A stretch of DNA of 64,000 nucleotides from Acidobacteriota bacterium (GTDB lineage: Bacteria; Acidobacteriota; Vicinamibacteria; Vicinamibacterales; UBA2999), in contig JBFMCA010000010.1 in assembly GCA_040754955.1 (NCBI GenBank), forward strand, positions 1,041-65,040, written 5' to 3'. The translations under genes and the position numbers were made by a program. Below are positions 10,964 through 51,066 of this stretch, in pieces. The notes under the pieces are model-generated. The model was not told the origin of the DNA, searched no databases, and saw only the letters and a list, made by a program, of their open reading frames with translations. Each line of letters starts with the position of its first letter. Position 1 is the first letter of the stretch.

Positions 10964-12985
10964 TCACTGTACCATGCGCCCTGTGCGTTGTGTCGCGCCT
11001 GGGCCGCAGAGCCGGCGCGCCCCCGATCCGCACGTCCAGCTCGTGGCGTACAGGACGGTATCGCCGTCGCGCGCGACTTCGTGCAGCCTGAACGCCGCGA
11101 TTGCGGTCTCGGCCAGGCCCGGGGGCATGCGGTGGAGGTGCATCACCACGTAGCCGAGCCGCGCGCGCCGCACGAAGCGGGGGCCCCGGCGCCGCAGGTC
11201 GGCGTGTTCCTCGTCGCTCAGCGACCGGCCTTCGCTCAACGTCGTCAACCGGGCGGTGGTCAGATACCGCGTGCGCATGCGCTCCCGCCGCGTCGTCGGG
11301 ATCCGCGACAGGTAGCCGCCGATCAGCCGCTTGCCATGGCGAGTCTGGTGGAACTGGTAGCGAGCGCTGAAGTCCCCCTCCGCCGACACGCCGTCGCGCA
11401 CGCCAAAGGGCAATTCGAGGACCCGGATCTCGCGCGTATCGGCGGCAATGACGTCGTAGACGGGCGAGATGTTGGCGGCGTAGAGCGCGCGTGGCGCCGG
11501 CAGCAGCTCGAAGGCCATCAGCAGCCCGACAAGCGCGAGCAGGGCCGGCCGGCGGGTGGGGTAGCGCCGGCTCAGCGCGACCATCGCGCCCGCCAGCAGG
11601 ATGGCGAGCCCCAGGGCCGCCACGACGGCGAAGCGCGTCGGCGTGCGGGCCAAATCGACGAGCGGCATGTAGCGCAGAATCGCCCAGGGGCCCGGCACGA
11701 ACGTGTTGACGCCGAGCACGTGCACGAACGGACCGAGCGCCAGCGCGGCGAAGCCTCCCGAGATCCACCACCAGACGGGGGCGGGCCGGAATCCGGCCCG
11801 CCACACGGCAAGAGCCACCGTCGCGAGCGCCACGAGGCTCAGGGCGGCCGTGTACTCGACGAAGCGGGTCGGGTCGGCCGCCTGGCTGTCGTGGACCCGC
11901 CGCACGAGCGGGTGGCTTGGGTTCGGCTGCACCAGCGCCGCCGCATCGACGCCGTGCGGGCTGCTGCGCCACAGGGTCGGGGGCCGGACGAAGCTCCCAT
12001 CGATCGCGCGCGCGCCCAGCCCGACGAGCACCGGGCCGAGCGCGAACGCCGCGGCCAGCGCGGCTACGGCGCCGGCCCGCACGACAATCGGCGACGGCGG
12101 CCAGAGTCCGCTCAACCGCGGCCGCAACTGGAGCAGCACGCGGGCGAGAATCAGCAGCGTCAGAATCAGGACAGGAGTGTACAGGCCGCGGACGCTCACC
12201 GCCACGCCCAGGATCTCCATGCGGCCGCCGCCGCCGAAGACGAGGCCGACGACGAGGCCGCCCGTGACAAGGACCAGCACGTTCAGCAGCCACCGGACGA
12301 CGTCGCGGCCGGGACGCTCGGCGCGTGCAATCCGCACGCCGCACGCCGCGGCATAGGCCAGGGCCATGAGCAGGCAGAAGATGGCGTAGTACACGTCGCA
12401 GAACCCGGCCCACGCCATTGCCAGGCCGACGAAGATCGCGTCGCGGAGGCGCCGGCTGCGGTCGGCCTGGATCAGGCACAGGAGGAAGGCCGCAAGCGGC
12501 GCCGCCGCCACCAGGCTGAAGTGGCCCGTCGAGCGCGCCACGAGCACGGGGGACCACGCGAAGGCGAGCCCCGCGAGCCACGCCTCGGGGCGCGGCGCGT
12601 CGAAGGCGCGCCGGGCGAGCGCATAGGCGCAGCAGGCCGTCAGCACGGTGGCGGCGAGGTACACCACGTTGAAGGTGGCCACCGCCCCGAGCCACGGCAG
12701 AAGGGGCAGGGCCAGCAGATTCAGGAAGAGGGTGTAGTTGTGCTGCGACAGGTCCATGCGCTCCCCGGTCAGCGACAGGATGCGCTCGGTCGTGAGGGGC
12801 GTGCGCCGCTCCTGGAGCGCTTCGTGCTGGAACACCCACTGGTTCCACACGTACACGCCCGTGTCGCCACCGGGGTCGCCGGTCAGGTGGGTGCTCAGGT
12901 TCGCCGCCAGCGGCCAGGTGAAGGCCACCGCGACGAGACCATAGGCTGCCAGGACGCCGAGCCGGGGGAGCCATCCGCGCCACAT
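10964..12985 (-). CDS. large polytopic membrane protein, possibly GT-C-like glycosyltransferase (function uncertain)
   Basis: The ATG at 12983-12985 (MWRGWLPRLGVLAAYGLVAVAFTWPLA...) gives 673 aa with many TM segments. It ends 7 nt before the next gene. The first 45 codons of the listed ORF are Arg/Pro-rich and unlikely to be coding. Confidence 0.55.
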   Translation of the reverse strand: MWRGWLPRLGVLAAYGLVAVAFTWPLAANLSTHLTGDPGGDTGVYVWNQWVFQHEALQERRTPLTTERILSLTGERMDLSQHNYTLFLNLLALPLLPWLGAVATFNVVYLAATVLTACCAYALARRAFDAPRPEAWLAGLAFAWSPVLVARSTGHFSLVAAAPLAAFLLCLIQADRSRRLRDAIFVGLAMAWAGFCDVYYAIFCLLMALAYAAACGVRIARAERPGRDVVRWLLNVLVLVTGGLVVGLVFGGGGRMEILGVAVSVRGLYTPVLILTLLILARVLLQLRPRLSGLWPPSPIVVRAGAVAALAAAFALGPVLVGLGARAIDGSFVRPPTLWRSSPHGVDAAALVQPNPSHPLVRRVHDSQAADPTRFVEYTAALSLVALATVALAVWRAGFRPAPVWWWISGGFAALALGPFVHVLGVNTFVPGPWAILRYMPLVDLARTPTRFAVVAALGLAILLAGAMVALSRRYPTRRPALLALVGLLMAFELLPAPRALYAANISPVYDVIAADTREIRVLELPFGVRDGVSAEGDFSARYQFHQTRHGKRLIGGYLSRIPTTRRERMRTRYLTTARLTTLSEGRSLSDEEHADLRRRGPRFVRRARLGYVVMHLHRMPPGLAETAIAAFRLHEVARDGDTVLYATSWTCGSGARRLCGPGATQRTGRMVQ

Positions 12986-12995
12986 GGGGGTGCCG

Positions 12996-13004
12996 AAGAT
13001 AGCA
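12996..13004 (-). promoter_or_regulatory. candidate extended -10 (TGcTATCTT) 10 nt upstream of the ATG at 12985
   Basis: Minus strand reads TGCTATCTT-cggcaccccc-ATG with no SD. The identical 9-mer recurs at 21502-21510. Confidence 0.35.
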
Positions 13005-13179
13005 CAGGTCGGGGGTGAGTCCTGGGCTGAACTCCGGCTGAGGTAGGTCCTGCCGTGCCGGCACCGAACGCGTGGAGGTTCTGGTTCGCTGAGCCGGGTA
13101 CAACGAGCGGGCCGGACCACCCGAGGGTAGCCCGGCCCACGCCAGCCGGCCGCAGATCTGCGCCCTCTACGGCCTGGAC

Positions 13180-16045
13180 TCTAGAAGTCGTAGCGGAGGC
13201 CGAAGCGAATCACGCGGGGCGCGAGAATCGCCGTGACCTCGTGGAAGTTCACCGTCGTCGTGCGCAAGGTCGTCGGCACGCCCGAGTTGGTGAGGTTGAA
13301 GACGTCGAGCTGGCCGGTCAGCTTGCCGTAGCGGCCCAGGTCGAACGACTTGTCCGCCCGGACGTCCATGATGGCCACGGTCGGGTAGCGCCGCGTGTTG
13401 ATCGGCTCGACGCGGAACGTGCGGCTGCCGTCGCCGGGGAACGACACGGTGACGGTGCGGCCGTAGTTCTCGCCGCTCTGCACCTTCCACGAGCCCGACA
13501 GGCCGATGTCGAAGGGCATGGTGTAGCGGCCGATGACCTTGTAGTTCCAGGTCGTCGACGTCTCGATGCCGTTGTCGCCGAAGATGCGGCGCGCGGGCAG
13601 GAAGTTCTGGTTGTTGGTGAGCCGGTCGTAGCCCGTGGTGTCGTGGAGCATCGTGGACCACGTGTGGCCGACCGAGGTGAGCAGCATCCAGCGGCCCGAG
13701 AAGCGGCGGTTCACCGCGAACTCGATGGTGTGGAAGTCGGCGTCGGCGTCGGGGATGTTCGTGTAGACGCGGTCCTGCGCGAGCCCGGCCGGCCGGTCGA
13801 AGGTCGAAATCGTCTTGTTGTCCGCCGTCGTGGCCAGGTTGTTGTCCGGGCCCGGGTCGGTGAAGGTGAAGGGCACCGTGTACTGCGGGCCGCGAATCGT
13901 GTCGTACTCGCCCCACACGTTGCGCATGTTCTTGTAGACGTAGGTGGCGCGGCCCGAGAGGCCCCGGACGATCTCGCGCTCGAGGTTCACCGACAGCTCG
14001 TTGCTCGTCGGGCGCGTGAGGTTGCGGTCGACGCGGACGAAGCCGGCGCCGCCCTGCGTGGAGTTGAACGCGCCCAGCTCCTGCGGACCGTCCAGCAGGC
14101 GGTTGCCGTTCAGGTCGCACGCCGTGGTGCGCGTGGCCGTGCAGGGCAGGAAGGCGTAGCGCAGCTGCGCGATGCCCACCGGATTCTCCTGGTCCGACAG
14201 CGTGTCGGCCGAGTTCCACCGCGACTGCCCGAAGTAGGCCTTGAGCACCGTGCGGTTGTCGCCGCTCAGGTCGTAGGCGAAGCCCACGCGCGGCGAGGCC
14301 GTCAGCGACTCCGAGACCGTCGTGGCCGCGACCGTGCGCGGCGCGATGAACGACAGGTAGCGGGCGCGCTCGACGGGGTTGACGTCCGCCGGCCAGTTCG
14401 CGAGCTGCGGCAGGCCGTTCGGCGCAAACTGCTGCTCCGGCCAGCCGTCCTCATACGCCTCGATGCGCACGCCCAGGTTGATGGTCAGGCGATTGGTGAC
14501 CTTCCACGTGTCGTTGATCCACGCGGCGGTGTAGTTCACGTCGTTGATGCCGGTCACCGACGTGTTGTAGATGTCCACCTGGTTGATGACGCCGTTCAGG
14601 TCGCGGTAGAAGATGTCGAACGGCTGGTCGCGGAAGAGCTGCCGGCGGTCGCGCTTCCAGTCGAACCCGGCGCGGAAGTCGTGGCTGCCCTTCCACCCGT
14701 CCTGGAAGTACGAGAAGGTGACGTAGAACTGCGGCTTGAACCGCTTCTGGTCCTGGTAGCCGTTGTTCGCGCCGCCCGAGAAGATCTGGTTGTTGGCCGT
14801 GTCGATGCGGCCGGGGCCCCACGGACCGTCGTAGAGGCCGAAGTCGCGGACCGGCCGCAGCGGGAAGAAGTTGTACCACTGCGCCGCCATCACGTCGAGG
14901 AACGCGCGGCTGCCGAGCACGCTCGTCCACTCCACCTTCATCGGGTAGTTGCGCGACGCCTGGTAGTAGGCGGCCGAGAGCGGCGTCGTCAGGCTGATAC
15001 CGCGCTTGTCCTGCAGCTTCTCGCGCTTGTTCAGGAAGCCGATGAGCTGGTTGTTCCGATTGAGCTGGAACGTGCCCTTGAACGTGTACTTGTTCGAGAG
15101 CTTCGAGCGCTCCAAGGTGTCGCCGAGGCCCAGGATGTGCTTGTACTGGTCGTTGAGGCGGTAGCTGTAGAAGAACCACGCCTTCTGCTTCCAGATCGGC
15201 CCGCCGACGTTGAAGTTGAGGTCGTACTGCTTGCTCACCGGGTTGCCGCGCCGGAGCGGCGTGCGGGTGAAGTAGCCCTGCTCGTTCGGCGTGTTGGCCG
15301 TGCGGAGGTAGTCCGGCACGTTGGTCTCGGCGATGGTGTCCTCGTTGAGGAAGTCGCTGTACCAGTTGCCCGAGACCCGGTCGCCGCCCGACTTGACGCT
15401 GATGCTCAGCACCGCGCCGCCCGCAAACGCCGAGGCGTCCGCGCCCGCGCCGCCCACCTGGAACTCCTCGAAGCTGCCGAAGTCGAAGTAGCCGGCATTG
15501 GCCGCCGTGCCCTCGGTGGTGTCGATGCCCTCGAGCCGCGTCTGGTTCTGCGTGTCGAAGCCGTAGGTGCGGTAGCCGGTCTGGTTGCCCGTGTTCGACC
15601 CGCCGACGTCGTAGCCGGTCATCTGGATGCCCGGCGCCTGCGACATCGCCGCCCAGATGTCCCGCGCGTTCGGAATCTCCGTCAGCAGCTCCTTGGTGAA
15701 GTTCGTCCCGACCTGCGTCGTCGACGTGTCGACAATGGGCGATTCGCCCGTGACGGTGACCGTCTCCTGCAGCGTCGCCACCTGCAGCTGCTGGTCGACC
15801 GTCAGCGTCTGGTTGATCACCACGCGGATGCCCTCGCGCCGGACCGTCTGGAACCCGGCCAGCTCGAACATCAACTCGTAGACACCGGGGGGAAGCGCGA
15901 GAAAGCGGAATTCACCCGCGGCACCGGTCACCTGCACCTGCGGCTGGATCAGCGCCGGGCTCGATGCCGTCACGGTCACACCCGGCAGCACGGCGCCGGT
16001 GTTGTCGACGACCGTGCCGTTGATACGGCCACGGAACTCCTGCGC
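13180..16045. repeat. tandem direct repeat, copy 1 (2,866 bp)
   Basis: Matches 16398-19263 at offset 3218 at all spot-checked positions. All six-frame ORF translations in the two copies are identical. Confidence 0.9.
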
Positions 16046-16114
16046 GGCCGCCGGCTGGGCCGCGACGGCAAGCGCCACGCCCAGGAGAAGCGCCGAGAAC
16101 CACTTCAACCTCAT
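13181..16114 (-). CDS. TonB-dependent receptor-like outer-membrane beta-barrel with N-terminal carboxypeptidase-regulatory-like domain (copy A)
   Basis: The ATG at 16112-16114 is preceded by GGAGGG. Signal peptide MRLKWFSALLLGVALAVAAQPAAA, then QEFRGRINGTVVDNTGAVLPGVTVT (CarboxypepD_reg-like), a long barrel, and a C-terminal ...RFGLRYDF. 977 aa. The listed 1418-aa ORF is a read-through artefact. Confidence 0.85.
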   Translation of the reverse strand: MRLKWFSALLLGVALAVAAQPAAAQEFRGRINGTVVDNTGAVLPGVTVTASSPALIQPQVQVTGAAGEFRFLALPPGVYELMFELAGFQTVRREGIRVVINQTLTVDQQLQVATLQETVTVTGESPIVDTSTTQVGTNFTKELLTEIPNARDIWAAMSQAPGIQMTGYDVGGSNTGNQTGYRTYGFDTQNQTRLEGIDTTEGTAANAGYFDFGSFEEFQVGGAGADASAFAGGAVLSISVKSGGDRVSGNWYSDFLNEDTIAETNVPDYLRTANTPNEQGYFTRTPLRRGNPVSKQYDLNFNVGGPIWKQKAWFFYSYRLNDQYKHILGLGDTLERSKLSNKYTFKGTFQLNRNNQLIGFLNKREKLQDKRGISLTTPLSAAYYQASRNYPMKVEWTSVLGSRAFLDVMAAQWYNFFPLRPVRDFGLYDGPWGPGRIDTANNQIFSGGANNGYQDQKRFKPQFYVTFSYFQDGWKGSHDFRAGFDWKRDRRQLFRDQPFDIFYRDLNGVINQVDIYNTSVTGINDVNYTAAWINDTWKVTNRLTINLGVRIEAYEDGWPEQQFAPNGLPQLANWPADVNPVERARYLSFIAPRTVAATTVSESLTASPRVGFAYDLSGDNRTVLKAYFGQSRWNSADTLSDQENPVGIAQLRYAFLPCTATRTTACDLNGNRLLDGPQELGAFNSTQGGAGFVRVDRNLTRPTSNELSVNLEREIVRGLSGRATYVYKNMRNVWGEYDTIRGPQYTVPFTFTDPGPDNNLATTADNKTISTFDRPAGLAQDRVYTNIPDADADFHTIEFAVNRRFSGRWMLLTSVGHTWSTMLHDTTGYDRLTNNQNFLPARRIFGDNGIETSTTWNYKVIGRYTMPFDIGLSGSWKVQSGENYGRTVTVSFPGDGSRTFRVEPINTRRYPTVAIMDVRADKSFDLGRYGKLTGQLDVFNLTNSGVPTTLRTTTVNFHEVTAILAPRVIRFGLRYDF

Positions 16115-16314
16115 GCGAACACCCTCCACCAACACATCAACGGGACTCTTCTCAGACGACAGCCGAACGGCCGGCGACCAGTTGGGTCGGGTGCACGGCG
16201 CCAGTCTGTTCGGGGCAAAGGACGCAACGATGGTAGGGGTGGAACCTGCAGGAAGGCAACCCGATTTCACGGCACGAGCGTCCAGCTCATCCGTAAGCAT
16301 CCAGCTCATCCACG

Positions 16315-16348
16315 AAAAAAGAGCCGGGTGCACGAAGCAACCCGGCTC
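16315..16348 (-). terminator. rho-independent terminator downstream of receptor copy B
   Basis: Minus strand reads GAGCCGGGT-tgcttcgtgc-ACCCGGCTC followed by TTTTTT. It lies 51 nt after the copy-B stop. Confidence 0.7.
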
Positions 16349-16397
16349 TGAGGGTGACTGGCAACGCGCGAGTGGCTCGCGCGTCGAAACGACTCGG

Positions 16398-19263
16398 TCT
16401 AGAAGTCGTAGCGGAGGCCGAAGCGAATCACGCGGGGCGCGAGAATCGCCGTGACCTCGTGGAAGTTCACCGTCGTCGTGCGCAAGGTCGTCGGCACGCC
16501 CGAGTTGGTGAGGTTGAAGACGTCGAGCTGGCCGGTCAGCTTGCCGTAGCGGCCCAGGTCGAACGACTTGTCCGCCCGGACGTCCATGATGGCCACGGTC
16601 GGGTAGCGCCGCGTGTTGATCGGCTCGACGCGGAACGTGCGGCTGCCGTCGCCGGGGAACGACACGGTGACGGTGCGGCCGTAGTTCTCGCCGCTCTGCA
16701 CCTTCCACGAGCCCGACAGGCCGATGTCGAAGGGCATGGTGTAGCGGCCGATGACCTTGTAGTTCCAGGTCGTCGACGTCTCGATGCCGTTGTCGCCGAA
16801 GATGCGGCGCGCGGGCAGGAAGTTCTGGTTGTTGGTGAGCCGGTCGTAGCCCGTGGTGTCGTGGAGCATCGTGGACCACGTGTGGCCGACCGAGGTGAGC
16901 AGCATCCAGCGGCCCGAGAAGCGGCGGTTCACCGCGAACTCGATGGTGTGGAAGTCGGCGTCGGCGTCGGGGATGTTCGTGTAGACGCGGTCCTGCGCGA
17001 GCCCGGCCGGCCGGTCGAAGGTCGAAATCGTCTTGTTGTCCGCCGTCGTGGCCAGGTTGTTGTCCGGGCCCGGGTCGGTGAAGGTGAAGGGCACCGTGTA
17101 CTGCGGGCCGCGAATCGTGTCGTACTCGCCCCACACGTTGCGCATGTTCTTGTAGACGTAGGTGGCGCGGCCCGAGAGGCCCCGGACGATCTCGCGCTCG
17201 AGGTTCACCGACAGCTCGTTGCTCGTCGGGCGCGTGAGGTTGCGGTCGACGCGGACGAAGCCGGCGCCGCCCTGCGTGGAGTTGAACGCGCCCAGCTCCT
17301 GCGGACCGTCCAGCAGGCGGTTGCCGTTCAGGTCGCACGCCGTGGTGCGCGTGGCCGTGCAGGGCAGGAAGGCGTAGCGCAGCTGCGCGATGCCCACCGG
17401 ATTCTCCTGGTCCGACAGCGTGTCGGCCGAGTTCCACCGCGACTGCCCGAAGTAGGCCTTGAGCACCGTGCGGTTGTCGCCGCTCAGGTCGTAGGCGAAG
17501 CCCACGCGCGGCGAGGCCGTCAGCGACTCCGAGACCGTCGTGGCCGCGACCGTGCGCGGCGCGATGAACGACAGGTAGCGGGCGCGCTCGACGGGGTTGA
17601 CGTCCGCCGGCCAGTTCGCGAGCTGCGGCAGGCCGTTCGGCGCAAACTGCTGCTCCGGCCAGCCGTCCTCATACGCCTCGATGCGCACGCCCAGGTTGAT
17701 GGTCAGGCGATTGGTGACCTTCCACGTGTCGTTGATCCACGCGGCGGTGTAGTTCACGTCGTTGATGCCGGTCACCGACGTGTTGTAGATGTCCACCTGG
17801 TTGATGACGCCGTTCAGGTCGCGGTAGAAGATGTCGAACGGCTGGTCGCGGAAGAGCTGCCGGCGGTCGCGCTTCCAGTCGAACCCGGCGCGGAAGTCGT
17901 GGCTGCCCTTCCACCCGTCCTGGAAGTACGAGAAGGTGACGTAGAACTGCGGCTTGAACCGCTTCTGGTCCTGGTAGCCGTTGTTCGCGCCGCCCGAGAA
18001 GATCTGGTTGTTGGCCGTGTCGATGCGGCCGGGGCCCCACGGACCGTCGTAGAGGCCGAAGTCGCGGACCGGCCGCAGCGGGAAGAAGTTGTACCACTGC
18101 GCCGCCATCACGTCGAGGAACGCGCGGCTGCCGAGCACGCTCGTCCACTCCACCTTCATCGGGTAGTTGCGCGACGCCTGGTAGTAGGCGGCCGAGAGCG
18201 GCGTCGTCAGGCTGATACCGCGCTTGTCCTGCAGCTTCTCGCGCTTGTTCAGGAAGCCGATGAGCTGGTTGTTCCGATTGAGCTGGAACGTGCCCTTGAA
18301 CGTGTACTTGTTCGAGAGCTTCGAGCGCTCCAAGGTGTCGCCGAGGCCCAGGATGTGCTTGTACTGGTCGTTGAGGCGGTAGCTGTAGAAGAACCACGCC
18401 TTCTGCTTCCAGATCGGCCCGCCGACGTTGAAGTTGAGGTCGTACTGCTTGCTCACCGGGTTGCCGCGCCGGAGCGGCGTGCGGGTGAAGTAGCCCTGCT
18501 CGTTCGGCGTGTTGGCCGTGCGGAGGTAGTCCGGCACGTTGGTCTCGGCGATGGTGTCCTCGTTGAGGAAGTCGCTGTACCAGTTGCCCGAGACCCGGTC
18601 GCCGCCCGACTTGACGCTGATGCTCAGCACCGCGCCGCCCGCAAACGCCGAGGCGTCCGCGCCCGCGCCGCCCACCTGGAACTCCTCGAAGCTGCCGAAG
18701 TCGAAGTAGCCGGCATTGGCCGCCGTGCCCTCGGTGGTGTCGATGCCCTCGAGCCGCGTCTGGTTCTGCGTGTCGAAGCCGTAGGTGCGGTAGCCGGTCT
18801 GGTTGCCCGTGTTCGACCCGCCGACGTCGTAGCCGGTCATCTGGATGCCCGGCGCCTGCGACATCGCCGCCCAGATGTCCCGCGCGTTCGGAATCTCCGT
18901 CAGCAGCTCCTTGGTGAAGTTCGTCCCGACCTGCGTCGTCGACGTGTCGACAATGGGCGATTCGCCCGTGACGGTGACCGTCTCCTGCAGCGTCGCCACC
19001 TGCAGCTGCTGGTCGACCGTCAGCGTCTGGTTGATCACCACGCGGATGCCCTCGCGCCGGACCGTCTGGAACCCGGCCAGCTCGAACATCAACTCGTAGA
19101 CACCGGGGGGAAGCGCGAGAAAGCGGAATTCACCCGCGGCACCGGTCACCTGCACCTGCGGCTGGATCAGCGCCGGGCTCGATGCCGTCACGGTCACACC
19201 CGGCAGCACGGCGCCGGTGTTGTCGACGACCGTGCCGTTGATACGGCCACGGAACTCCTGCGC
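16398..19263. repeat. tandem direct repeat, copy 2 (2,866 bp)
   Basis: See copy 1. Divergence begins at 19264 (cgc|ctcagcg versus cgc|ggccgcc in copy 1). Confidence 0.9.
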
Positions 19264-19335
19264 CTCAGCGGGGAGGCCGGCGAGCAGACTCGCCGACAGG
19301 CACAGGACGAAAACGAGCGTCCTCCTCAACGTCAT
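16399..19335 (-). CDS. TonB-dependent receptor-like outer-membrane beta-barrel (copy B)
   Basis: The ATG at 19333-19335 is preceded by GGAGGG. Its signal peptide (MTLRRTLVFVLCLSASLLAGLPAEA) differs from copy A, and the following 953 aa are identical to copy A. 978 aa. Confidence 0.85.
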   Translation of the reverse strand: MTLRRTLVFVLCLSASLLAGLPAEAQEFRGRINGTVVDNTGAVLPGVTVTASSPALIQPQVQVTGAAGEFRFLALPPGVYELMFELAGFQTVRREGIRVVINQTLTVDQQLQVATLQETVTVTGESPIVDTSTTQVGTNFTKELLTEIPNARDIWAAMSQAPGIQMTGYDVGGSNTGNQTGYRTYGFDTQNQTRLEGIDTTEGTAANAGYFDFGSFEEFQVGGAGADASAFAGGAVLSISVKSGGDRVSGNWYSDFLNEDTIAETNVPDYLRTANTPNEQGYFTRTPLRRGNPVSKQYDLNFNVGGPIWKQKAWFFYSYRLNDQYKHILGLGDTLERSKLSNKYTFKGTFQLNRNNQLIGFLNKREKLQDKRGISLTTPLSAAYYQASRNYPMKVEWTSVLGSRAFLDVMAAQWYNFFPLRPVRDFGLYDGPWGPGRIDTANNQIFSGGANNGYQDQKRFKPQFYVTFSYFQDGWKGSHDFRAGFDWKRDRRQLFRDQPFDIFYRDLNGVINQVDIYNTSVTGINDVNYTAAWINDTWKVTNRLTINLGVRIEAYEDGWPEQQFAPNGLPQLANWPADVNPVERARYLSFIAPRTVAATTVSESLTASPRVGFAYDLSGDNRTVLKAYFGQSRWNSADTLSDQENPVGIAQLRYAFLPCTATRTTACDLNGNRLLDGPQELGAFNSTQGGAGFVRVDRNLTRPTSNELSVNLEREIVRGLSGRATYVYKNMRNVWGEYDTIRGPQYTVPFTFTDPGPDNNLATTADNKTISTFDRPAGLAQDRVYTNIPDADADFHTIEFAVNRRFSGRWMLLTSVGHTWSTMLHDTTGYDRLTNNQNFLPARRIFGDNGIETSTTWNYKVIGRYTMPFDIGLSGSWKVQSGENYGRTVTVSFPGDGSRTFRVEPINTRRYPTVAIMDVRADKSFDLGRYGKLTGQLDVFNLTNSGVPTTLRTTTVNFHEVTAILAPRVIRFGLRYDF

Positions 19336-19553
19336 TCGGGGGCCCTCCAAGAGACCTGAAAAAATGGGCTGAACCGGCTCACCTGTAGCAAACCGGATAC
19401 CACAGCTCATCTGTAGGCCCGTGCCCTTGAGGGCGGCTTTGGGCACGGAATTTCGCGAGGATGTGACATTCCGTGACAATTCGGGCCGTCCGGATCCGGT
19501 CAATTGAAGACCACGCTGCGGGAATCCGTATTGTTCAGCCAGTGACGACGCCA

Positions 19554-20816
19554 ATGACGAAGCCGACAGCCTGCCTCATGACCCTCTCCCTCACGTTCGC
19601 TGCGGCGGCCAGTGCCGGAGCCCAGCAGAACGCTGCCGCGCTCGGGCCCGACCTCCTCAAGCAGCCGGCCGTCCGGGCCGCGCTGGATGCAGCCCGTGCG
19701 GCCGAAGCCGACACCATCGAAGAGCAGATTCGCCTCTGCGAGGTCGAGGCGCCACCCTTCAAGGAGGCCCGGCGCGCCGAACTCTACGCGCGGCTGTTTC
19801 GCGAAGCGGGGCTCCAGAACGTGCGCATCGACCGGGTGGGCAACGTTCTCGGCGAGCGGCCCGGGAGGCAGCGCCGGCCGCACCTGGTCTTTTCGGCACA
19901 CCTCGACACGGTGTTTCCCGAGGGCACCGATGTCCGCGTGACGCGCGAGGGCACCGTGCTCAGGGGACCCGGCATTGGCGACGACTGCCGGGGGTTGGCG
20001 GTCGTGCTGGCCGTGGTCCGGGCGCTCAACGCGGCCAAGGTCCAGACGCCCGGAACCATCACCTTCGTCGGCACCGTGGGGGAGGAAGGGCTGGGCGATC
20101 TGCGCGGCGTGAAGGCGCTGTTCAACGACACGCTGAAAGGCCAGGTCGATCGCTTCGTGTCGATCGACGGCACCGGCCTCGGCATCACGCACATCGCCGT
20201 GGGGAGCCTCCGCTATCGCGTGACGTTCAAGGGGCCGGGCGGGCACAGCTACGGCGCGTTCGGGCTGGTCAATCCGATTCACGCCTTGGGCCGAGCGATG
20301 GCCAGGATTGCCGACTTCGAGGTGCCGCTCGACCCCAAGACCACCTTCAACGTCGGCCGCATCGGCGGCGGAACGTCCGTCAACTCCATTGCCTTCGACG
20401 CGTGGATGGAGGTGGACATGCGGTCGGCCGACGCTGCGTCGCTCACGGCGCTCGACGCGAAATTCCACAAGGCCGTGGACGATGCCGTCGCCGACGAGAA
20501 CGCGCGGTGGGGGCGCCGTGAGCTGACGGTGGTCAAGGACCTTGTCGGCGATCGACCCGCGGGCCGCAGCGCCGCCACCTCACCGATTGTCGAAGCCGCC
20601 GTGTCGGTGACGCGGGCCCTCAACCTGCCCGTGGCGCTCGACGAGGGGTCGACCGACTCGAACATCCCGATGAGCCTCGGCATCCCGGCCGTGACCATCG
20701 ACGGCGGCGGCCGCGGCACCGGCGCCCACGCCCTGCACGAGTCGTTCGACACGACCAACTCATGGCAGGGCACCATCCGCGCCGTGCTTCTGGCCATCGC
20801 GCTGGCGCAGCCATAG
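19554..20816 (+). CDS. M20/M28-family metallopeptidase, secreted
   Basis: ATG at 19554 (MTKPTACLMTLSLTFAAAASAGA signal). Metal-ligand motifs SAHLDTVFP, GIGDDCRG and GEEGLGD are present. Confidence 0.75.
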   Translation: MTKPTACLMTLSLTFAAAASAGAQQNAAALGPDLLKQPAVRAALDAARAAEADTIEEQIRLCEVEAPPFKEARRAELYARLFREAGLQNVRIDRVGNVLGERPGRQRRPHLVFSAHLDTVFPEGTDVRVTREGTVLRGPGIGDDCRGLAVVLAVVRALNAAKVQTPGTITFVGTVGEEGLGDLRGVKALFNDTLKGQVDRFVSIDGTGLGITHIAVGSLRYRVTFKGPGGHSYGAFGLVNPIHALGRAMARIADFEVPLDPKTTFNVGRIGGGTSVNSIAFDAWMEVDMRSADAASLTALDAKFHKAVDDAVADENARWGRRELTVVKDLVGDRPAGRSAATSPIVEAAVSVTRALNLPVALDEGSTDSNIPMSLGIPAVTIDGGGRGTGAHALHESFDTTNSWQGTIRAVLLAIALAQP

Positions 20817-20922
20817 GGGAATGACGAATGACGAATGACAAATGACGAATGACAAAGGCGGGGGACCGACGAGCTGCCGAGGCCCGCTTTCGCCATTCGT
20901 CATTCGCCATTCCTCATTCCCT
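20817..20922. repeat. imperfect palindrome built from heptamer tandem repeats: (AATGACR)x5 - 36 nt - (CGYCATT)x4
   Basis: Left arm 20820-20854, right arm 20891-20918. The inner flanks AAAGGCGGG/CCCGCTTT also pair. It lies between convergent genes, and the right arm overlaps the stop codon of 20914..21465. Confidence 0.8.
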
Positions 20923-24002: not shown

Positions 24003-26693
24003 CTAGAACGACCAGCGGAGGCCGACGGTGCCCTGGCGCGCCGACGTGACCGCGGTGGCATTGCCGAACGCCACCGAGTTGCCGGAGATGCTGACGCTCG
24101 GGAACCGCGCGTTGCGCGTGATCACCGTGCCCGAGTTGAACACGTTCTCGAGGTCGGCGTAGATGCCGAACCGGTGCACGCCGACGTTGAAGACCTTCTC
24201 GAGCCGCAGGTCGAGGAGGGCCAGCTTGTCGTTGCGGTACGAGCCCTGCTCTTCGAGCTGGACGTCGATGGAGCTCGTCCAGTTGAAGCGGCTGGACGAA
24301 ACGCGATTGAACGGCGTGTAGGTCGTGCCGCTCAGGGCGCGGAAGTAGCCGTTGAGGGCAACCTCGATCTTCGGAATCTGGTAGCCGGCAAACAGCTTGA
24401 ACTCGTGCGGCCGGTCGAGCGGGACGCGGCCGTCACGGTTGATGAGCACCTGGTTGGGCGTTTCGAACTGGCTGGACGAGACGTCCGAGAAGGCGCCGCT
24501 CGCGACCGTGCCCGTCGTCTTCGAGTAGACGTACGACACCTGGGCCTGCCACCGGTTGGAGTAGCCCTTGTTGAGCACGAGCATCACGCCGTTGTAGTCG
24601 CGCGTCGCCTCGCCCGTGCCGGCGCCCGCGTAGTTCACGGTGTCGACATTCGTGATGAGGAACCGCTGCTCGATGGACGCCCGGTTCGCCCAGCGGTAGA
24701 TGGTCATCGCCTGGTTCGTCTTGGGGTTGGTGAACGCCACCGGCGACCACTGGCCGTTGATGAGCACCGAGTTGACGAAGTTCTTGCTCTCGCGCCGGAT
24801 GTAGGTGGCCGAGGCCTTCCAGCCGCGGGCGAGCTGCTGCTCGAACGCGACGTTGAACTCGTCGCTGCGCGGGTGATCGATATCGTCGTCCACGACGTAC
24901 TTGCTCGCGCCCGAGATGCGGTCGATCTCCACCAGCCGGTTGCCCGGGAACACCTCGTAGATCACGTAGTCGCCGATCCCCGGCACGGCCCGGCTCCACG
25001 AAGTGAAGACGGCGCCGCCGTAGAGCTGACCGTAGTAGGCGCGGAGCACCGAGTTGCCCCGGCCGGTGAGGTCGATGGCCAGTCCGAGGCGCGGGCTCAC
25101 CGAGTTCGTCGAGTAGTACTCGCGTCCGTCGGAGCCCTCGCCGCCGATGCCGTCGTAGCGCACGCCGAGGTTCGCGGTGAAGCGGCCCCCGATGGTCCAC
25201 TGGTCCTGCGCGTAGACGGTCTGCCGCTTGTTCCGCCCCTCGACGTCGTAGCTGTAGGAGTAGGCGAGGTACGGCTGGCCGCCCACGTCGTAGAAGAACA
25301 GGCCGTCGGTGTAGGCGAACCGGTTGCGGATCTTGCTGCGCTCGATCTCGACGCCGAACTTGAAGTTGTGCGTGCCGCCCGCCTGCACGTAGCGGTTGAG
25401 CGACGCGTTCAGCTGGTTGCGCAGCCGGTCGTACTTCGCGCTGTAGCCCGCGCCGCCCGAGTACGAACCGTCGTCGTTCAGGCGCGCCGGCAGCGGCGTG
25501 ATCGGGTCGAGGTCGAAGTAGCCCCAGTACCCGGTGTACTTCGCCTCGAAGAACGAGCTGCTGCCCAGGATCTTCCGGTACTGGCCGTTCCAGATGAACT
25601 CCGGCGAGTCCTGCTCGACGGTGCGGGCGTCGGTCGTGTTGGCCACGCCGCCCAGGCCGGTGCGTCCCGTCTGGTTGTACTGGTCGTACTGGAAGGTGCC
25701 CGTCAGGCTGTCGTTGGAGGTCGGCTGGAAGGTGAGCTTGGTGTTGAAGCGCGGGCTCACCTCGGTTCGGATGGTCCGCGGACCATCGGGATCCTGCTTG
25801 ATGGCGTACCGCTGAACGCTGCCGAAGAAGAACATCTTGTCACGGCGGATCGGACCCCCGAGCTGCACGGTGTAGTCCTTCAGCGAGTCCACCTTCGACG
25901 AGCTCAACGTCGGGTTCTGGGATTTCACCGACGAGGAGATGTTGTTGCCGCTCAGGCTCTTGTTGCTGTAGCGGTGCTCGAACAGGCTCGAGTAGCGGTT
26001 GCTGCCCGACTTGGTGATCGTGTTGATCACCGCCCCGGTGAAGCCGCCGTACTCGGCCGACTGGCCGAGGCCGCCCACCTGCACTTCTTCGATGATGTTG
26101 TAGTTGAAGAACGTCCACGCCGTGCCGCCCTCGGGGTCGCGCGTGTCGACGCCGTCGAGCAGCAGCGCGTTGGCCGAGTTCGCCGACCCGCCGAAGGCCG
26201 ACCCGCTGTTGACGCCCGGCGAGTAGTTGAGCATGTTCACCGCGGCGTTGGTGCGCGAGATCGGCATGGCGAACAGCAGATCCTGCGAGATCTTGTTGTC
26301 CGTCGCCGTCGTCGTCGTGTCCACCGCGATGGCCTCGGCCACGACCTGCACCGTCTCCTGCAGCGCGCCGACTTCGAGCGTCAGGCGGAGCTGCACGGTC
26401 GCGCCGATCGACACCGCCACGTTCGCCCGCTCGTAGGGGCGGAAGCCCTGCAGCTCCGCGCGAACGGTGTAGGTGCCCGGCTGCAGGCCCACGAAGCGGA
26501 AGACGCCCGTACCGTCGGTGAACTGCGTGCTCGATCCCGTCCGGCCCGTCAGGACGACGCTCACGCCAGGCAGCACCTGGCCCTGCGCGTCGACGACCGT
26601 GCCGGTGATGGTGCCCGTCTGGGTCTGTGCGGACGCCAACGTCCCGACGGACAGCAGGAGCGCAGCGAGGGTGATAGTCAGTCGTCTCACCAT
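24003..26693 (-). CDS. TonB-dependent receptor-like outer-membrane beta-barrel with CarboxypepD_reg-like N-terminus (receptor C)
   Basis: ATG at 26691-26693, with GAGGA 9 nt upstream (the listed GTG 26702 abuts the SD). Signal MVRRLTITLAALLLSVGTLASA, then QTQTGTITGTVVDAQGQVLPGVSV, and a C-terminal ...VGLRWSF. Confidence 0.85.
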   Translation of the reverse strand: MVRRLTITLAALLLSVGTLASAQTQTGTITGTVVDAQGQVLPGVSVVLTGRTGSSTQFTDGTGVFRFVGLQPGTYTVRAELQGFRPYERANVAVSIGATVQLRLTLEVGALQETVQVVAEAIAVDTTTTATDNKISQDLLFAMPISRTNAAVNMLNYSPGVNSGSAFGGSANSANALLLDGVDTRDPEGGTAWTFFNYNIIEEVQVGGLGQSAEYGGFTGAVINTITKSGSNRYSSLFEHRYSNKSLSGNNISSSVKSQNPTLSSSKVDSLKDYTVQLGGPIRRDKMFFFGSVQRYAIKQDPDGPRTIRTEVSPRFNTKLTFQPTSNDSLTGTFQYDQYNQTGRTGLGGVANTTDARTVEQDSPEFIWNGQYRKILGSSSFFEAKYTGYWGYFDLDPITPLPARLNDDGSYSGGAGYSAKYDRLRNQLNASLNRYVQAGGTHNFKFGVEIERSKIRNRFAYTDGLFFYDVGGQPYLAYSYSYDVEGRNKRQTVYAQDQWTIGGRFTANLGVRYDGIGGEGSDGREYYSTNSVSPRLGLAIDLTGRGNSVLRAYYGQLYGGAVFTSWSRAVPGIGDYVIYEVFPGNRLVEIDRISGASKYVVDDDIDHPRSDEFNVAFEQQLARGWKASATYIRRESKNFVNSVLINGQWSPVAFTNPKTNQAMTIYRWANRASIEQRFLITNVDTVNYAGAGTGEATRDYNGVMLVLNKGYSNRWQAQVSYVYSKTTGTVASGAFSDVSSSQFETPNQVLINRDGRVPLDRPHEFKLFAGYQIPKIEVALNGYFRALSGTTYTPFNRVSSSRFNWTSSIDVQLEEQGSYRNDKLALLDLRLEKVFNVGVHRFGIYADLENVFNSGTVITRNARFPSVSISGNSVAFGNATAVTSARQGTVGLRWSF

Positions 26694-26705
26694 GGGGCGC
26701 ACTCC

Positions 26706-36744: not shown

Positions 36745-36755
36745 AACGGGTTCTT

Positions 36756-36790
36756 CGCCATTCGCCATTCGTCATTCGTCATTCGTCATT
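36756..36790. repeat. heptamer tandem repeat (CGYCATT)x5, same family as 20891-20918
   Basis: cgccatt cgccatt cgtcatt cgtcatt cgtcatt followed by ccctgt, the same 3' flank as at 20919. It starts 12 nt after a stop codon. No inverted partner arm is present. Confidence 0.8.
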
Positions 36791-36814
36791 CCCTGTTCCC
36801 CCTGAGCCCACTCC

Positions 36815-45563: not shown

Positions 45564-46714
45564 CGCCGTTCGGGGGGCGCCGCCAGCGTCTCGTCGATGG
45601 CCGCGTTGAGCTCACGCGCGAACCGCTCCCGGCTGAAGCGCTCGGCGTGCGCGCGGATGCGCGCGCCGTCCCACGAGCGGGCCGCCACGCGGCTCAACGC
45701 CTCGGCCAGCGACGCGTCGGTTGGGTCTTGAAACAGCACGCCGGTCTCGCCGTCCACGACCGTTTCGAGTGCGCCCCCGCGCGCGTAGGCCACGACGGGC
45801 CGGCCGCACGCCTGCGCTTCGAGCGGCACGATGCCGAAATCTTCCTCCCCCGGGAGGATGGTCGCGATGGAGGTGCGATACAGGTCGCGGATCTCGTGGT
45901 TCTGCAGCCAGCCCAGCAACTCGATGCCCTGGCCGCGGCCTGCCAGCGCTTCGAGCGCCGCGCGATCGGGCCCGTCGCCGACGATGGTCAGGCGCACTCC
46001 GGCCCGCCGCGCCGCCAGGATCGCGAGGTCCACCCGCTTGTAGGGCACGAGCGCCGACACCATCAAGAACCGATCCTCGACCGCGTCGGCGCCCGGCGAC
46101 GCCGGAGCTCCGGGGTCGCCGGCCAGCGAGGGGACCGGGGCGTAGAAGTCGGTCTGGACGGGCGGGTACACGATGGTCGATCGCCGATTATAGTAGAGCG
46201 CGATCCTCCGCGCAACATATTGAGAGATAGCCAGATAGCGGTGCACGCGGCTCGCCGTGGCGCGGTCCCACCGCGCCATCGCCGCCATCACCGGCCGGGC
46301 CAGCCGGCTCGCCGGCGCGCCGACCCGATCGGGGCCAAAGTAGGCGTCGAACTGGTCCCAGGCATAGCGCATGGGCGTCAGGCAGTAGCAGAGGTGCCGC
46401 GCCCGGCCCGTCACCACCACGGCCTTGGCGGCGCAGTGGCTGCAGCTCACCACCAGATCGTAGTCATCGAGGCCGAACTGCTCGATGGCGGCCGGGAAGA
46501 GCGGGAGGTAATGGCGATACAGGCGGCCGGCGAGCGGGAGCCGCTGGATGAACGAGGTCCGCACGCGCCGCCGCTCGATGAAGGGCGAGGTGGCGCCAGG
46601 GACTCGCATGAGCGTGAAGAGATCGGCGTCGGGGAAGATCTCGCAGATGGCCTCGAGGGCCTTCTCGCCGCCGCGCATGCCCGTGAGCCAGTCGTGGATG
46701 AGCGCGACTCTCAC
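45557..46714 (-). CDS. glycosyltransferase family 4 (GT-B)
   Basis: [10 protein letters not shown]... N-terminus and the E-x7-E region [23 protein letters not shown]. It overlaps both neighbours. Confidence 0.8.
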
Positions 46715-47823
46715 CGATCCAGGATCTCCATGTAGATGCGGTGGATCGCGGCCGCCGACTTGGCCCAGGAAAACGCCGCGACCCGGGCGCGCCCGCGGGC
46801 GACGAGCTCCGCGCGCAGCGCCTCGTCGGTCACGGCGCGGCGCATGGCCTCGCCGATCGCCGAGGGATCATAGGGATCGACGAGCAGCGCCGCGTCGCCG
46901 GCCACCTCGGGCAGCGACGACACGTTCGACACCACCACCGGCGCGCCGCACGCCATGGCCTCGAGCGGCGGGAGGCCGAAGCCTTCATAGAGCGACGGAA
47001 AGACAAACGCCCGGGCGAGACGATAGAACGCCGCGAGCGTCTCGAGCGGCTGGAAGCCCAGGAAGCGCACGTGCTTGTCGAGGCGGTGCCGGTGGACGGC
47101 CTGGCGGAGCGCGGGGTACTTGGAGATCTCGTCGCCCACGATGACGAGGCGGAGGTCATCGAGGCCCTCGGCCCGCGCGCGGCCGAAGGCATCGATCAGC
47201 CGCTCGACGTTCTTATGCGGCTTGATGTTGCCGACGTAGAGCACGAAGGGCCGGTCGAGCTGGAAGCGCTGGCGCGCGCGCTCCATCTGCTCCTCTCCGG
47301 GCGGCTGGAGGAACCGCTCGTCGATGGCGTTGTAGATGACCGACACCTTGTCGGCGGGGATGTCGACGAAGCGCAGGATGTCGCGCTTGGACGCCTCCGA
47401 CACTGTGAGGACGCGGTCGGCCTTTCGCGCCGCGCTCCAGATGGACCCCCGCGCGTAGAGGTACGCCCCGCGATTGGGCAGGTACTGCGGGAACATCAGG
47501 TGGATGCAGTCGTGGATGGTCACGACCGACCGGCTGCGCACGAGCGGCGGCAGCACGTAATGGGGCTCGTGCACCAGGTGCACGCGCTCGCGCACCAGGC
47601 TCAGCGGGATGCGGAACTGCTCGCGGACCGAGTACGGACGGGCCGATTCGGCCACCCAGCGAAAGTTCGGCCCGAGCGGCAGCGGCTGGTCCACGTCCTC
47701 GGGCCGGCACAGCACGATGTACTCGGTCGCCTGGTCCAGCCGCGCCAGCTCGATGAGCACGTTGCGGATGTAGGTCCCGATGCCGAAGTCGTGCAGTTTC
47801 CGGGCGTCGATGGCAATGCGCAT
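46711..47823 (-). CDS. glycosyltransferase family 4 (GT-B)
   Basis: [10 protein letters not shown]... and [26 protein letters not shown]. Confidence 0.8.
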
Positions 47824-48730: not shown

Positions 48731-49817
48731 CGCCGGCCTCCTCGATGGCGCGCAGCGTGGTGGCGGCGGTGAGCTCCCAGCGGTAGCGCCCGACGACGGC
48801 AGAGGCGTGCCGGAGCACGTCCTGCCGGGCGGCCGGCGACGTCAGCAGGTCGAGCACTGCCATCTCCAGATGGACGGCGGTGTCGGGCGGCGGCGGCACG
48901 TAGCGCGCGGCGGGGCCGTAGATCTCCCGGGCCACCGGCGTGTCCATGACGATAGGCGGCACGCCCGCGGCGAGCGCCTCGAGCGGCGTCAAGCCAAACC
49001 CCTCGTATTCCGAGAGGAACACGAAGGTCGAGGCGCGGCTGTACAAGTCCCGCAACGCGCCGTCGTCGACGTAGGACGTGAGCGCAATCCGCGAACGCAC
49101 GCCCGCCGGGAGCCGGGCGAGGCGCGCGTCGAACCCGTGTCCGCCGCCCATGCGGTCTTCGCCGACGACGGCCAGCCGGACCGACGGCAGCGCCGGCGCA
49201 ATGCGCGTGGCGAACGCGTCGACGAGCAGGTCGACATGTCGCCGCGGCAGAATCGTGCCGACAAACAGCACCAGCGGCTCGCGAGCCGGCGCCGCCGCCC
49301 GGTCGTTCGCCGTCCGCAAGCCCAGGTGGATGACACGGACCCGCGGCGGCCGCAGGCCCAGATGGCGCGCGATCTCGTCACGTGAGAACGCCGAGTCGGT
49401 GAGCACGAGGCGGGCCCGGCGCGCGGCCATCGCGGTGACGTGGCGTCGCCGAAACCCCTCCCGAGGCGAATACCACTCCGGATGCGCGATGAACGAGACG
49501 TCGTGCACCGTCAGCGCGACCGGACAGGGTGTCGAGAGCGGCGCGGTGTAGCCGGGCGCGAACAGGACGTCCGGGCGATCGGACGCGAGGGCCCGCGCAA
49601 GCGTCCACTGCTCCCACAGGGTGCCGCCGTTTCCGGGGAGCACCCTCAGCGCGTCTTCGAAGGCGTCGGGTACCTGCACGGCCTGATGGGCGTACAGGCG
49701 CCAGTCGTGCCGGGTGGCGGAGTGCAGGCCGGCCCACTCCTCGAGCAGCTCGGTCAGGTAGCGGCCCACGCCGGTCGGCTTTCCCCCGAGCTCGCGGGCG
49801 TCAACGGCGATGCGCAT
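48720..49817 (-). CDS. glycosyltransferase family 4 (GT-B)
   Basis: ATG at 49815-49817 (MRIAVDARELGGKPTGVGRY...) and FLSEYEGFGLTPLEALAAGVPPIV. The N-terminal 109 codons of the listed ORF overlap the upstream gene out of frame. Confidence 0.8.
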   Translation of the reverse strand: MRIAVDARELGGKPTGVGRYLTELLEEWAGLHSATRHDWRLYAHQAVQVPDAFEDALRVLPGNGGTLWEQWTLARALASDRPDVLFAPGYTAPLSTPCPVALTVHDVSFIAHPEWYSPREGFRRRHVTAMAARRARLVLTDSAFSRDEIARHLGLRPPRVRVIHLGLRTANDRAAAPAREPLVLFVGTILPRRHVDLLVDAFATRIAPALPSVRLAVVGEDRMGGGHGFDARLARLPAGVRSRIALTSYVDDGALRDLYSRASTFVFLSEYEGFGLTPLEALAAGVPPIVMDTPVAREIYGPAARYVPPPPDTAVHLEMAVLDLLTSPAARQDVLRHASAVVGRYRWELTAATTLRAIEEAGGAL

Positions 49818-50947: not shown

Positions 50948-51030
50948 CAAGAGCGGCAAGTCCTTGTGTGTCAGTATGTTGACAGCACCGGTGGCGGATG
51001 ATACCTTCCTTGGGATAATCGGCTGGCGAA

Positions 51031-51049
51031 AAAGGGGACAGTCCCCTTT
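51031..51049. promoter_or_regulatory. perfect 9-1-9 palindrome AAAGGGGAC-A-GTCCCCTTT in the divergent EPS control region
   Basis: Verified base by base. It is flanked by extra A's on the 5' side and TTGTT on the 3' side. It could be a dimeric-regulator operator or a terminator-like hairpin in the ugd leader. Confidence 0.4.
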
Positions 51050-51066
51050 GTTCGACCCGCCCGGGG

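Follow-up and report, generated by a model that had tools for sequence, protein, structure and literature searches.

Two adjacent genes on the minus strand of an acidobacterial metagenome-assembled genome (MAG) encode one and the same mature outer-membrane transporter behind two unrelated signal peptides. We suggest, with a probability of about 0.6, that they are real and old tandem paralogs, and that gene conversion within the chromosome has recently made the regions coding for the mature protein uniform. The window, i.e., the whole 64,000-nt stretch of DNA that was analysed, lies on a 67.6-kb contig of a Vicinamibacterales-like MAG from an uncultured soil or freshwater acidobacterium.

Exact self-comparison at an offset of 3218 gave a single unbroken match of 2866 nt between 13180-16045 and 16398-19263, with 0 mismatches and no N, confirming the perfect tandem repeat of about 2.87 kb reported in a preliminary description of this DNA; a repeat search of the window returned this pair with the same spacing (3218). 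Chance was rejected as the origin of the repeat, as it cannot yield such identity. The direct repeat spans two minus-strand genes. Its 5′ border is the GCG codon for the last signal-peptide Ala, after which it covers 953 mature codons and the TAG and ends 1 nt beyond it. Copy 1 (13180-16045) belongs to the downstream gene 1 (13181-16114, 977 aa, MEW6320243.1), which encodes a signal peptide, a CarboxypepD_reg domain, a weak plug and an outer-membrane β-barrel, and copy 2 (16398-19263) belongs to the upstream gene 2 (16399-19335, 978 aa, MEW6320244.1). The translations are identical over the mature part, so both genes do specify the same 953-aa mature receptor, as had been proposed. A second repeat family (46842/49941) in the window stems from two paralogous GT4 glycosyltransferase genes with 72% identity over 176 nt.

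The signal peptides and SD regions, unique to each gene, lie outside the repeat, as does a unique 352-nt spacer. Signal peptide 1 (MRLKWFSALLLGVALAVAAQPAAA, 16043-16114, minus strand) and signal peptide 2 (MTLRRTLVFVLCLSASLLAGLPAEA, 19261-19335, minus strand) contribute only their last codons to the repeat. Judged by inspection, both N-termini are Sec signal peptides with a basic n-region, a hydrophobic core and AxA ahead of Gln. Their mutual similarity (57.5%) equals the background (about 57%), against 100% in the mature part, and the preliminary description rightly called them unrelated. It was also right about separate SD sites: GGAGGG stands 7 nt before the ATG of both gene 1 (16122-16127, minus strand) and gene 2 (19343-19348, minus strand). 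The SD and signal-peptide region of gene 2 is homologous to those of the single-copy relatives L002 (z 7.0) and L072 (z 5.6). That of gene 1 shows weak similarity to the leaders of the downstream copies in L004 and L071; the origin of signal peptide 1 can be traced only weakly. Gene 2 is separated by a 137-nt divergent intergenic region (19336-19472) from a divergently transcribed M20/M28 peptidase gene (19473-20816, plus strand), the conserved upstream neighbour. The conserved downstream neighbour encodes a DUF2079-like membrane protein (10964-13120, minus strand), and the first GTG of its ORF occurs 60 nt past the gene 1 stop.

The spacer (16046-16397, minus strand) includes the terminator of gene 2; the leader and SD of gene 1, together with the greater part of its signal peptide, also lie there. 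RNA folding revealed two GC-rich hairpins (16314-16386, minus strand; dG -42.5 kcal/mol, z = -4.2), the second followed by UUUUUU, which likely form the intrinsic terminator of gene 2 and agree with the rho-independent terminator described earlier. It emerged only by folding: a consensus promoter/terminator scan of 12800-19800 found nothing, and it presumably missed the terminator because the predicted loop is wider than the 3-8-nt limit of the scan. With its terminator, leader, SD and plausible Sec signal peptide with AxA, the spacer has the anatomy typical of inter-paralog spacers in the family, and its size is close to that of the spacers in L004, L036 and L071. In nucleotide comparison with other genomes, its similarity is confined to the SD and signal peptide. 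Upstream of gene 1, two GATGAGCTG motifs are found in a 16-nt direct repeat within the spacer (16283-16310, minus strand), and one more is present in the divergent intergenic region (19403-19411). The window contains 7 such motifs versus 0.43 expected; a role as a conserved operator was rejected, since the motif is not kept in related loci. The proposal that the two genes have independent expression contexts therefore stands in part: their 5′ regions differ, but this rare motif is common to both.

A large (22-strand) outer-membrane β-barrel is the mark of the TonB-dependent transporter superfamily. The protein matched Pfam OMP_b-brl_4 in the barrel (E 1e-27) and, N-terminally, CarboxypepD_reg (PF13620, E 7e-17). 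In the AlphaFold model, the barrel has a pLDDT of 70-85, and residues 1-219 have a pLDDT below 50. The Pfam Plug match (PF07715, residues 132-225, E 0.017) scored 16.1 bits, below the cut-off of 23.9. All 50 Foldseek matches listed against the PDB were TonB-dependent transporters, the best being FusA (4zgv; E 7e-23, probability 1.0, TM 0.47-0.54), YddB (6ofr), siderophore receptors and SusC proteins. Searches of NCBIfam and of PDB sequences and profiles gave no matches. The earlier assignment as a TonB-dependent receptor thus holds at the fold level, with the plug sub-threshold in Pfam. The order of a CarboxypepD_reg domain and then a large barrel is like that of SusC/RagA-type, FusA-like and YddB-like transporters, and the C-terminal Phe of both proteins (RYDF) is shared with CarboxypepD_reg-type TonB-dependent transporters, an aromatic last residue being a feature of outer-membrane β-barrel proteins. 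Unlike a SusC/SusD pair, the locus in the window has no adjoining gene for a SusD-like lipoprotein (gene 2 is followed by the spacer and gene 1, gene 1 by the DUF2079-like gene, and the M20 peptidase gene lies upstream), and the plug remains below the Pfam threshold.

The transporter genes, CarboxypepD_reg-type and TonB-dependent-transporter-like, occupy a locus that is conserved across Vicinamibacterales. About 60 related MAGs share the order of S11 carboxypeptidase, M20 peptidase, one to three transporter copies, DUF2079 protein and spermidine-synthase/TPR protein. Tandem pairs are common. Most of the nearest relatives detected (L002, L003, L054, L070 and L072) carry a single copy. Within the pairs of relatives, nucleotide identity between copies ranges from 71% to 99.9%: 99.9% in L036 (with a 2786-nt exact run), 92% in L019, 91% in L071, 90% in L004 and 71-84% in the others. 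Pairs from long-read (MFD) MAGs are only 71-83% identical. Homology within a pair typically sets in 3-4 nt ahead of the first mature residue, Gln, and extends to the stop codon or its vicinity.

Each paralog in the window, L036, L004 and L071 has its nearest relative in its partner, ahead of any ortholog (100% versus at most 84% in the window, 91% versus 80-81% in L071 and 90% versus 87-88% in L004). The pattern recurs in independent lineages, with near-neighbour pairs in four or five distinct clades represented by the window, L036, L004, L019 and L071. Several genomes are mosaics in which the signal peptide derives from one lineage and the mature part from the adjacent copy, and two of them point to discordant histories along the gene, with a duplication older than the homogenised tract. 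In L025_b, the signal peptide and leader are 92-94% identical to those of the b-type L019_b and L020, whereas its mature part matches the neighbouring a-type copy at 82% and the b-type at 70-73%. In L004_a, the signal peptide is unlike the b-type and the mature part is 90% identical to L004_b. The signal-peptide DNA of orthologs is about as conserved as the mature DNA (99% versus 89% for L004_b/L047; 94% versus 84% for L019_b/L020), so the drop between paralogs at the cleavage site is not due to fast divergence of signal peptides after duplication, which was rejected. Among the options named in the preliminary description (a very recent duplication, ongoing gene conversion or an assembly artefact), these comparative data, namely the excess of paralog over ortholog identity and the mosaics, favour gene conversion, repeated within the family, between old tandem paralogs. 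Given pair identities of 71-100%, conversion would be sporadic across the family. In the lineage of the window itself, we infer both the age of the duplication and the conversion event, as well as any effect on expression.

Based on the above results, the following scenario may be suggested. In gene conversion, a non-reciprocal homologous recombination, one copy would have overwritten the other within the chromosome, and the tract would have run from end to end of the pre-existing homology. The codons at the tract ends are the most conserved (AQEFRGRINGT at the start and RFGLRYDF* at the end), and near-fixed codon choice (GC3 97%) would also preserve the similarity of these ends in the DNA. 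Recombination would be barred by divergence in the signal peptides, the leaders and the regions downstream, and hence the repeat borders would coincide with those of the mature protein. The outcome would be a single mature transporter encoded twice, by genes that differ in signal peptide, SD site and 5′ region. A terminator would close gene 2, and the next ORF begins within 60 nt of the end of gene 1.

An exact-protein look-up in public assemblies returned a sole result for gene 2, the 3.4-kb Logan contig L001, and nothing for gene 1. L001 represents a separately assembled, closely related strain and covers the repeat with 5 scattered third-codon synonymous differences. If the window copies had been independent since the split from L001, about 5 mutual differences would be expected between them, and the probability of the observed zero is about 0.007. 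L001 passes unbroken from the leader of gene 2 to the repeat and stops at the last base of the repeat (16398), where a graph branch is expected because the repeat has two continuations. The unbroken join of leader and repeat would not be expected in a perfect two-copy graph unless the junction lacked coverage. Public assemblies and metagenome contigs yielded no separate assembly that contains the spacer or the junction with signal peptide 1, and a 24-mer of the spacer had no match in JGI metagenome contigs. When signal peptide 1 and the first 105 mature residues served as a protein query, no independent fragment carrying signal peptide 1 was returned; the best matches were 89-90% identical over only 81-82% of the query.

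It is possible, although we consider it unlikely, that the two copies are real and only their perfect identity was made by the assembler. Variants would have been popped as bubbles, and the collapsed edge walked twice through the repeat-spacer-repeat loop of a de Bruijn graph, which gives zero differences by construction and could hide a real difference of up to a few percent. The source, a 67.6-kb MAG contig, is compatible with this. The genes lack the indel-type frameshifts of the Nanopore-derived L008, L059, L063, L067 and L069, which suggests HiFi or, in line with such a collapse, short reads. For SPAdes-type assemblers, a 2.9-kb exact repeat exceeds the normal insert size and is passable by loop traversal only. 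The sole other near-perfect pair, L036, also comes from a NODE_ (SPAdes-style) contig, and at the 5 synonymous sites where L001 departs from the window, two assemblers could have picked different paralog variants. The situation is like the traversal of a collapsed repeat in that exact repeat copies exceeding a read pair in length flank one unique spacer in a metagenome contig and a second assembly breaks at the repeat border. However, the sequence itself bears no sign of collapse, and mere loop traversal explains the perfect identity only, not the unique spacer or the family-wide tandem pairs. Moreover, pairs of 90-92% identity (L004, L019 and L071) were kept distinct by the same kinds of assembler; thus, only very similar copies collapse, and the true identity would still be high. 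If a short-read assembler did collapse the repeat, the true identity may be roughly 97-100%. Such a case would fit a fairly recent conversion rather than zero divergence. Exact multi-kilobase tandem repeats in MAG contigs call for read-level checks before zero divergence is read biologically.

At this one syntenic locus, exactly the mature part may have been repeatedly re-homogenised across the order Vicinamibacterales while the signal peptides and leaders were kept different, with selection maintaining a single receptor that is subject to two inputs, for export or regulation; this proposal is rather doubtful.

A misassembly of a single-copy genome, in which the second copy and the spacer came from a chimeric join of strain variants or a wrongly expanded loop, is very unlikely. 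In its favour are the metagenomic origin of the sequence, the single copy in most of the nearest relatives, the failure to find a separate spacer contig, and the branchless passage of L001 from the leader of gene 2 to the repeat. Against this, the spacer connects the 3′ end of the repeat to its 5′ start with normal inter-paralog anatomy and a size like those in L004, L036 and L071. A graph loop needs a tandem arrangement in some genome, the halt of L001 at the 3′ end of the repeat implies two continuations, and tandem pairs are common at the locus. The assembly artefact considered earlier thus keeps its force for the perfect identity, which may be imposed, but hardly for the second copy, given the family-typical spacer and the common tandem pairs. 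A fresh tandem duplication through unequal crossing-over or slippage without gene conversion, the very recent event raised earlier, would account for zero divergence over 2866 nt and for copy numbers that differ among relatives, but it is scarcely tenable and was rejected: its junction should consist of the segment's own ends with no spacer, whereas 352 nt of unique DNA and another signal peptide were found, with no detectable similarity to the region downstream of gene 1 or the rest of the window and only chance-level similarity (z 2.6) to the region upstream of gene 2, so a one-step event cannot give this structure, and orthologous signal peptides diverge no faster than the mature part.

Gene conversion between paralogs is an already known process, and Helicobacter babA/babB and Neisseria opa are examples among outer-membrane genes. 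Like outer-membrane genes under concerted evolution, the pairs studied here encode outer-membrane proteins, are closer within a genome than to orthologs and have homogenised tracts with diverged flanks. Unlike the babA/babB- and opa-type cases, they have no tie to host immune evasion or antigenic variation, the organism being a free-living acidobacterium, and the entire mature part is homogenised rather than variable cassettes swapped. Short-term concerted evolution by gene conversion in bacterial outer-membrane protein genes has been reviewed (Santoyo & Romero 2005, cited in PMC6053082). A comparable case is tufA/tufB (Lathe & Bork 2001; Kondrashov 2007, cited in PMC6053082), whose copies arose by an old duplication and sit in different genomic contexts; recurrent conversion keeps their coding regions (near-)identical, and loss has been lineage-specific. 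The dispersed tuf copies undergo long-lasting conversion that is nearly universal, in contrast to the window pair; at the locus studied here, the copies are tandem, pair identity varies from 71 to 100%, and the tract begins within the ORF, its 5′ boundary being the cleavage site.

If the identity is real, the locus would be a clean natural case of gene conversion with tract ends set by the limits of homology (cleavage site and stop codon), from an uncultured phylum that has received little study and whose transporter families are very large. Receptor copy number and sequence would then turn over quickly, and paralog trees in this transporter family would not record duplication dates. Should the proposal of repeated re-homogenisation also be true, the locus would represent recurrent, domain-bounded concerted evolution rather than a one-off event.

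Based on a base-by-base comparison at an offset of 3218 nt, positions 13180-16045 and 16398-19263 of the window constitute one unbroken identical run of 2866 nt with 0 mismatches and 0 N, and a separate repeat search of the window recovered the same spacing. The first codon of the run is the GCG that encodes the final Ala of the signal peptide, and the run ends 1 base past the TAG stop codon. It is shared by two minus-strand genes, gene 1 (13181-16114, 977 aa) and gene 2 (16399-19335, 978 aa), whose mature proteins of 953 aa are identical and whose signal peptides are unlike (MRLKWFSALLLGVALAVAAQPAAA in gene 1 vs MTLRRTLVFVLCLSASLLAGLPAEA in gene 2). Both genes carry GGAGGG 7 bases 5' of ATG. 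The 352-nt spacer between the copies (16046-16397) contains a pair of strong hairpins, with a U-run after the second one (folding, z = -4.2); a simple terminator scan did not detect this structure, presumably due to a loop wider than the 3-8-nt limit of the scan. The factual statements of the preliminary description about the copies, signal peptides, SD sites and terminator were thus all borne out, including by the exact self-comparison that it had proposed. Upstream of gene 1, its frame runs without a stop codon across the spacer and into gene 2; the resulting mechanical 1418-aa ORF (13181-17437, minus strand) is a high-GC artefact and could mislead gene callers.

The products correspond to MEW6320243.1 and MEW6320244.1 in NCBI, encoded on a 67,623-nt contig of a MAG labelled "Acidobacteriota bacterium". 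Pfam annotation revealed a CarboxypepD_reg domain (E 7e-17) and an OMP_b-brl_4 barrel (E 1e-27), with a sub-threshold plug match (E 0.017), and NCBIfam, PDB sequence and PDB profile searches gave no match to the transporter. In the AlphaFold model, based on 41 homologs, the barrel had pLDDT of 70-85 and the N-terminal 219 residues were unreliable. Since the Foldseek matches in PDB were all TonB-dependent transporters (FusA with E 7e-23, YddB, siderophore receptors and SusC proteins), the earlier assignment as TonB-dependent receptors holds at the fold level. No SusD-like partner gene was found at the locus. A third barrel gene with CarboxypepD_reg/OMP_b-brl_4/TonB_dep_Rec matches (~24006-26705, also minus strand) is only remotely related to the pair, sharing about 25-37% identity with members of the family, and has an ortholog in the related locus L008.

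The locus is conserved in the compared relatives, which are Vicinamibacterales MAGs. In it, divergently transcribed genes for two peptidases (S11 D-Ala-D-Ala carboxypeptidase; M20/M28) are followed by between one and three transporter genes, after which come a gene for a DUF2079-like membrane protein and one for a spermidine-synthase-like/TPR protein. Among the closest relatives found, L002, L003, L054, L070 and L072 are single-copy (79-83% amino-acid identity), and L071, closest among the relatives for which nucleotide sequences were compared (84% identity), has two copies. The latter is a MEGAHIT contig (L071:1-4846) beginning inside the upstream copy, so the signal peptide of that copy lies outside the contig. 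Several loci that share synteny with Vicinamibacterales MAGs (L007, L013, L015, L021, L027, L036, L054, L059 and L069) carry the label Bifidobacteriaceae, Acidimicrobiia or cyanobacterium in public databases; these are probably taxonomic mislabels. In the window, a heptamer array (GAATGAC)5 directly follows the M20 peptidase stop codon and precedes an imperfectly complementary (TTCGCCA)3.4 (20819-20853, 20889-20912), with an inverted (TTCGTCA)5.4 array at a distance of 16 kb (36754-36791). The arrays may act as hairpin-forming terminators or belong to a small repeat family. A polysaccharide cluster contains two GT4 glycosyltransferase genes (46711-47823 and 49801-50931, minus strand), which share 72% identity across 176 nt, adjoining a UDP-glucose dehydrogenase gene (50964-52391, plus strand). 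In contrast to the perfect repeat, the GT4 pair is one of ordinary diverged paralogs.

Tandem copies were compared in 15 genomes, with copy-to-copy nucleotide identity from 71% to 99.9%. The L036 pair is 99.9% identical with a 2786-nt exact run, followed by L019 (92%), L071 (91%), L004 (90%), L015, L014, L025 and L011 (82-84%) and the other seven pairs (71-78%). In almost every pair, at any divergence, detectable DNA homology begins 3-4 nt 5' of the mature Gln and stops at, or shortly past, the stop codon, so the match between repeat and mature-protein borders characterises the family rather than a single event. The phenomenon recurs in L036 (L036:10076-16117), an independent MAG whose protein shares 65% amino-acid identity with that of the window; its copies have different signal peptides, and their homology decays through a shared terminator ~95 nt beyond the stop codon.

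In a neighbour-joining tree, L032_a grouped with L038_a and L032_c with L038_b, by position, which indicates an old duplication without homogenisation. The copies of the window, L036 and L004 grouped by genome, as did the L071 pair in pairwise nucleotide comparison, its copies being only 80-81% identical to any other genome. Two genes are clear mosaics. The signal peptide and leader of L025_b are 92-94% identical to those of the b-type L019_b and L020, but the mature part of this gene shares 82% identity with the adjacent a-type copy and only 70-73% with b-type copies; the mature part of L004_a is 90% identical to L004_b, and its signal peptide is unlike the b-type. From these comparisons, the mosaics and the drop in homology at the cleavage site are marks of gene conversion confined to the mature part.

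A second assembly, the 3376-nt Logan contig L001 (run ERR15087766), matches window positions 19773-16398 with six differences and therefore represents a close strain. One difference falls in the peptidase gene; the other five are at third codon positions scattered over the repeat. All five variable alleles are common to both window copies, although about 5 differences between the copies would be expected had they been separate since the L001 split (P of zero about 0.007). De Bruijn contigs end at graph branches; L001 ends exactly on the last base of the repeat, and hence, in that read set, the repeat continued in two ways. The contig also passes unbroken between the leader of gene 2 and the repeat, which would not be expected in a perfect two-copy graph unless the spacer-to-repeat junction was uncovered by reads.

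It is a real possibility that the letter-perfect exactness was imposed by the assembler. The window is a MAG contig without indel-type frameshifts and so probably derives from short reads; Nanopore-derived loci, by contrast, gave fragmented hits. A short-read assembler can emit a 2.9-kb exact repeat only via a simple loop walk, in which case both copies would be the same graph edge, identical by construction, and small paralog differences would be lost as bubbles. MEGAHIT is not known to output repeats of this type, metaSPAdes can do so through loop traversal, and HiFi assemblies resolve them outright. The sole other near-perfect pair, L036, is also on a SPAdes-type contig, and pairs from long-read MAGs are 71-83% identical. 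However, assemblers of the same kinds resolved pairs of 90-92% identity as separate copies. The true identity in the window must therefore be very high, by our estimate roughly 97-100%, which still requires a recent homogenising event. In the long-read MFD MAGs L008, L059, L063, L067 and L069, the transporter genes are split into several different-frame hits, due either to indel errors of Nanopore sequencing or to the genes being pseudogenes.

It is unlikely that the second copy is entirely false, given that the spacer has an anatomy and size normal for inter-paralog spacers and that a graph loop demands a tandem arrangement in some genome. One-step tandem duplication is excluded: in nucleotide comparison, the spacer resembles neither the start of the downstream flank nor the end of the upstream flank, of which it would be composed. 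Rapid signal-peptide divergence after whole-gene duplication is ruled out as the cause of the drop to background similarity at the cleavage site of paralog pairs, as signal-peptide DNA is about as conserved as the mature part among orthologs. The leader and signal peptide of gene 2 are homologous to those of the single-copy L002 (z 7.0) and L072 (z 5.6), and those of gene 1 show weak similarity to the downstream-copy leaders of L004 and L071, over the SD and signal peptide only. Upstream of gene 1, the spacer contains two copies of the 9-mer GATGAGCTG (16283-16291 and 16302-16310, minus strand), within a 16-nt direct repeat GGATGAGCTGGAYGCT; a single copy lies upstream of gene 2 (19403-19411, minus strand). 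The 9-mer totals 7 copies in the window vs an expected 0.43. It may act as a regulatory site common to both genes but was not conserved 5' of the transporter genes in other genomes.

Among the explanations offered in the preliminary description (very recent event, gene conversion, assembly artefact), the evidence thus supports a narrower reading, gene conversion between old tandem paralogs, with the mosaics and the genome-wise grouping in its favour. At the two ends of the repeat lie the coding sequences of AQEFRGRINGT and RFGLRYDF*, the motifs with the highest conservation in the family. In the transporter gene (13184-16042), GC at third codon positions is 97%, so synonymous sites are strongly constrained by composition, inflating DNA conservation among paralogs. 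Owing to both, any pair of copies has nearly the same DNA sequence at these ends, which can anchor a conversion tract across the whole homologous segment. Gene conversion among duplicated bacterial genes is well known. The present case is a further instance, in Acidobacteriota, with a conversion tract that is tidily domain-bounded and with evidence of recurrence across an order.
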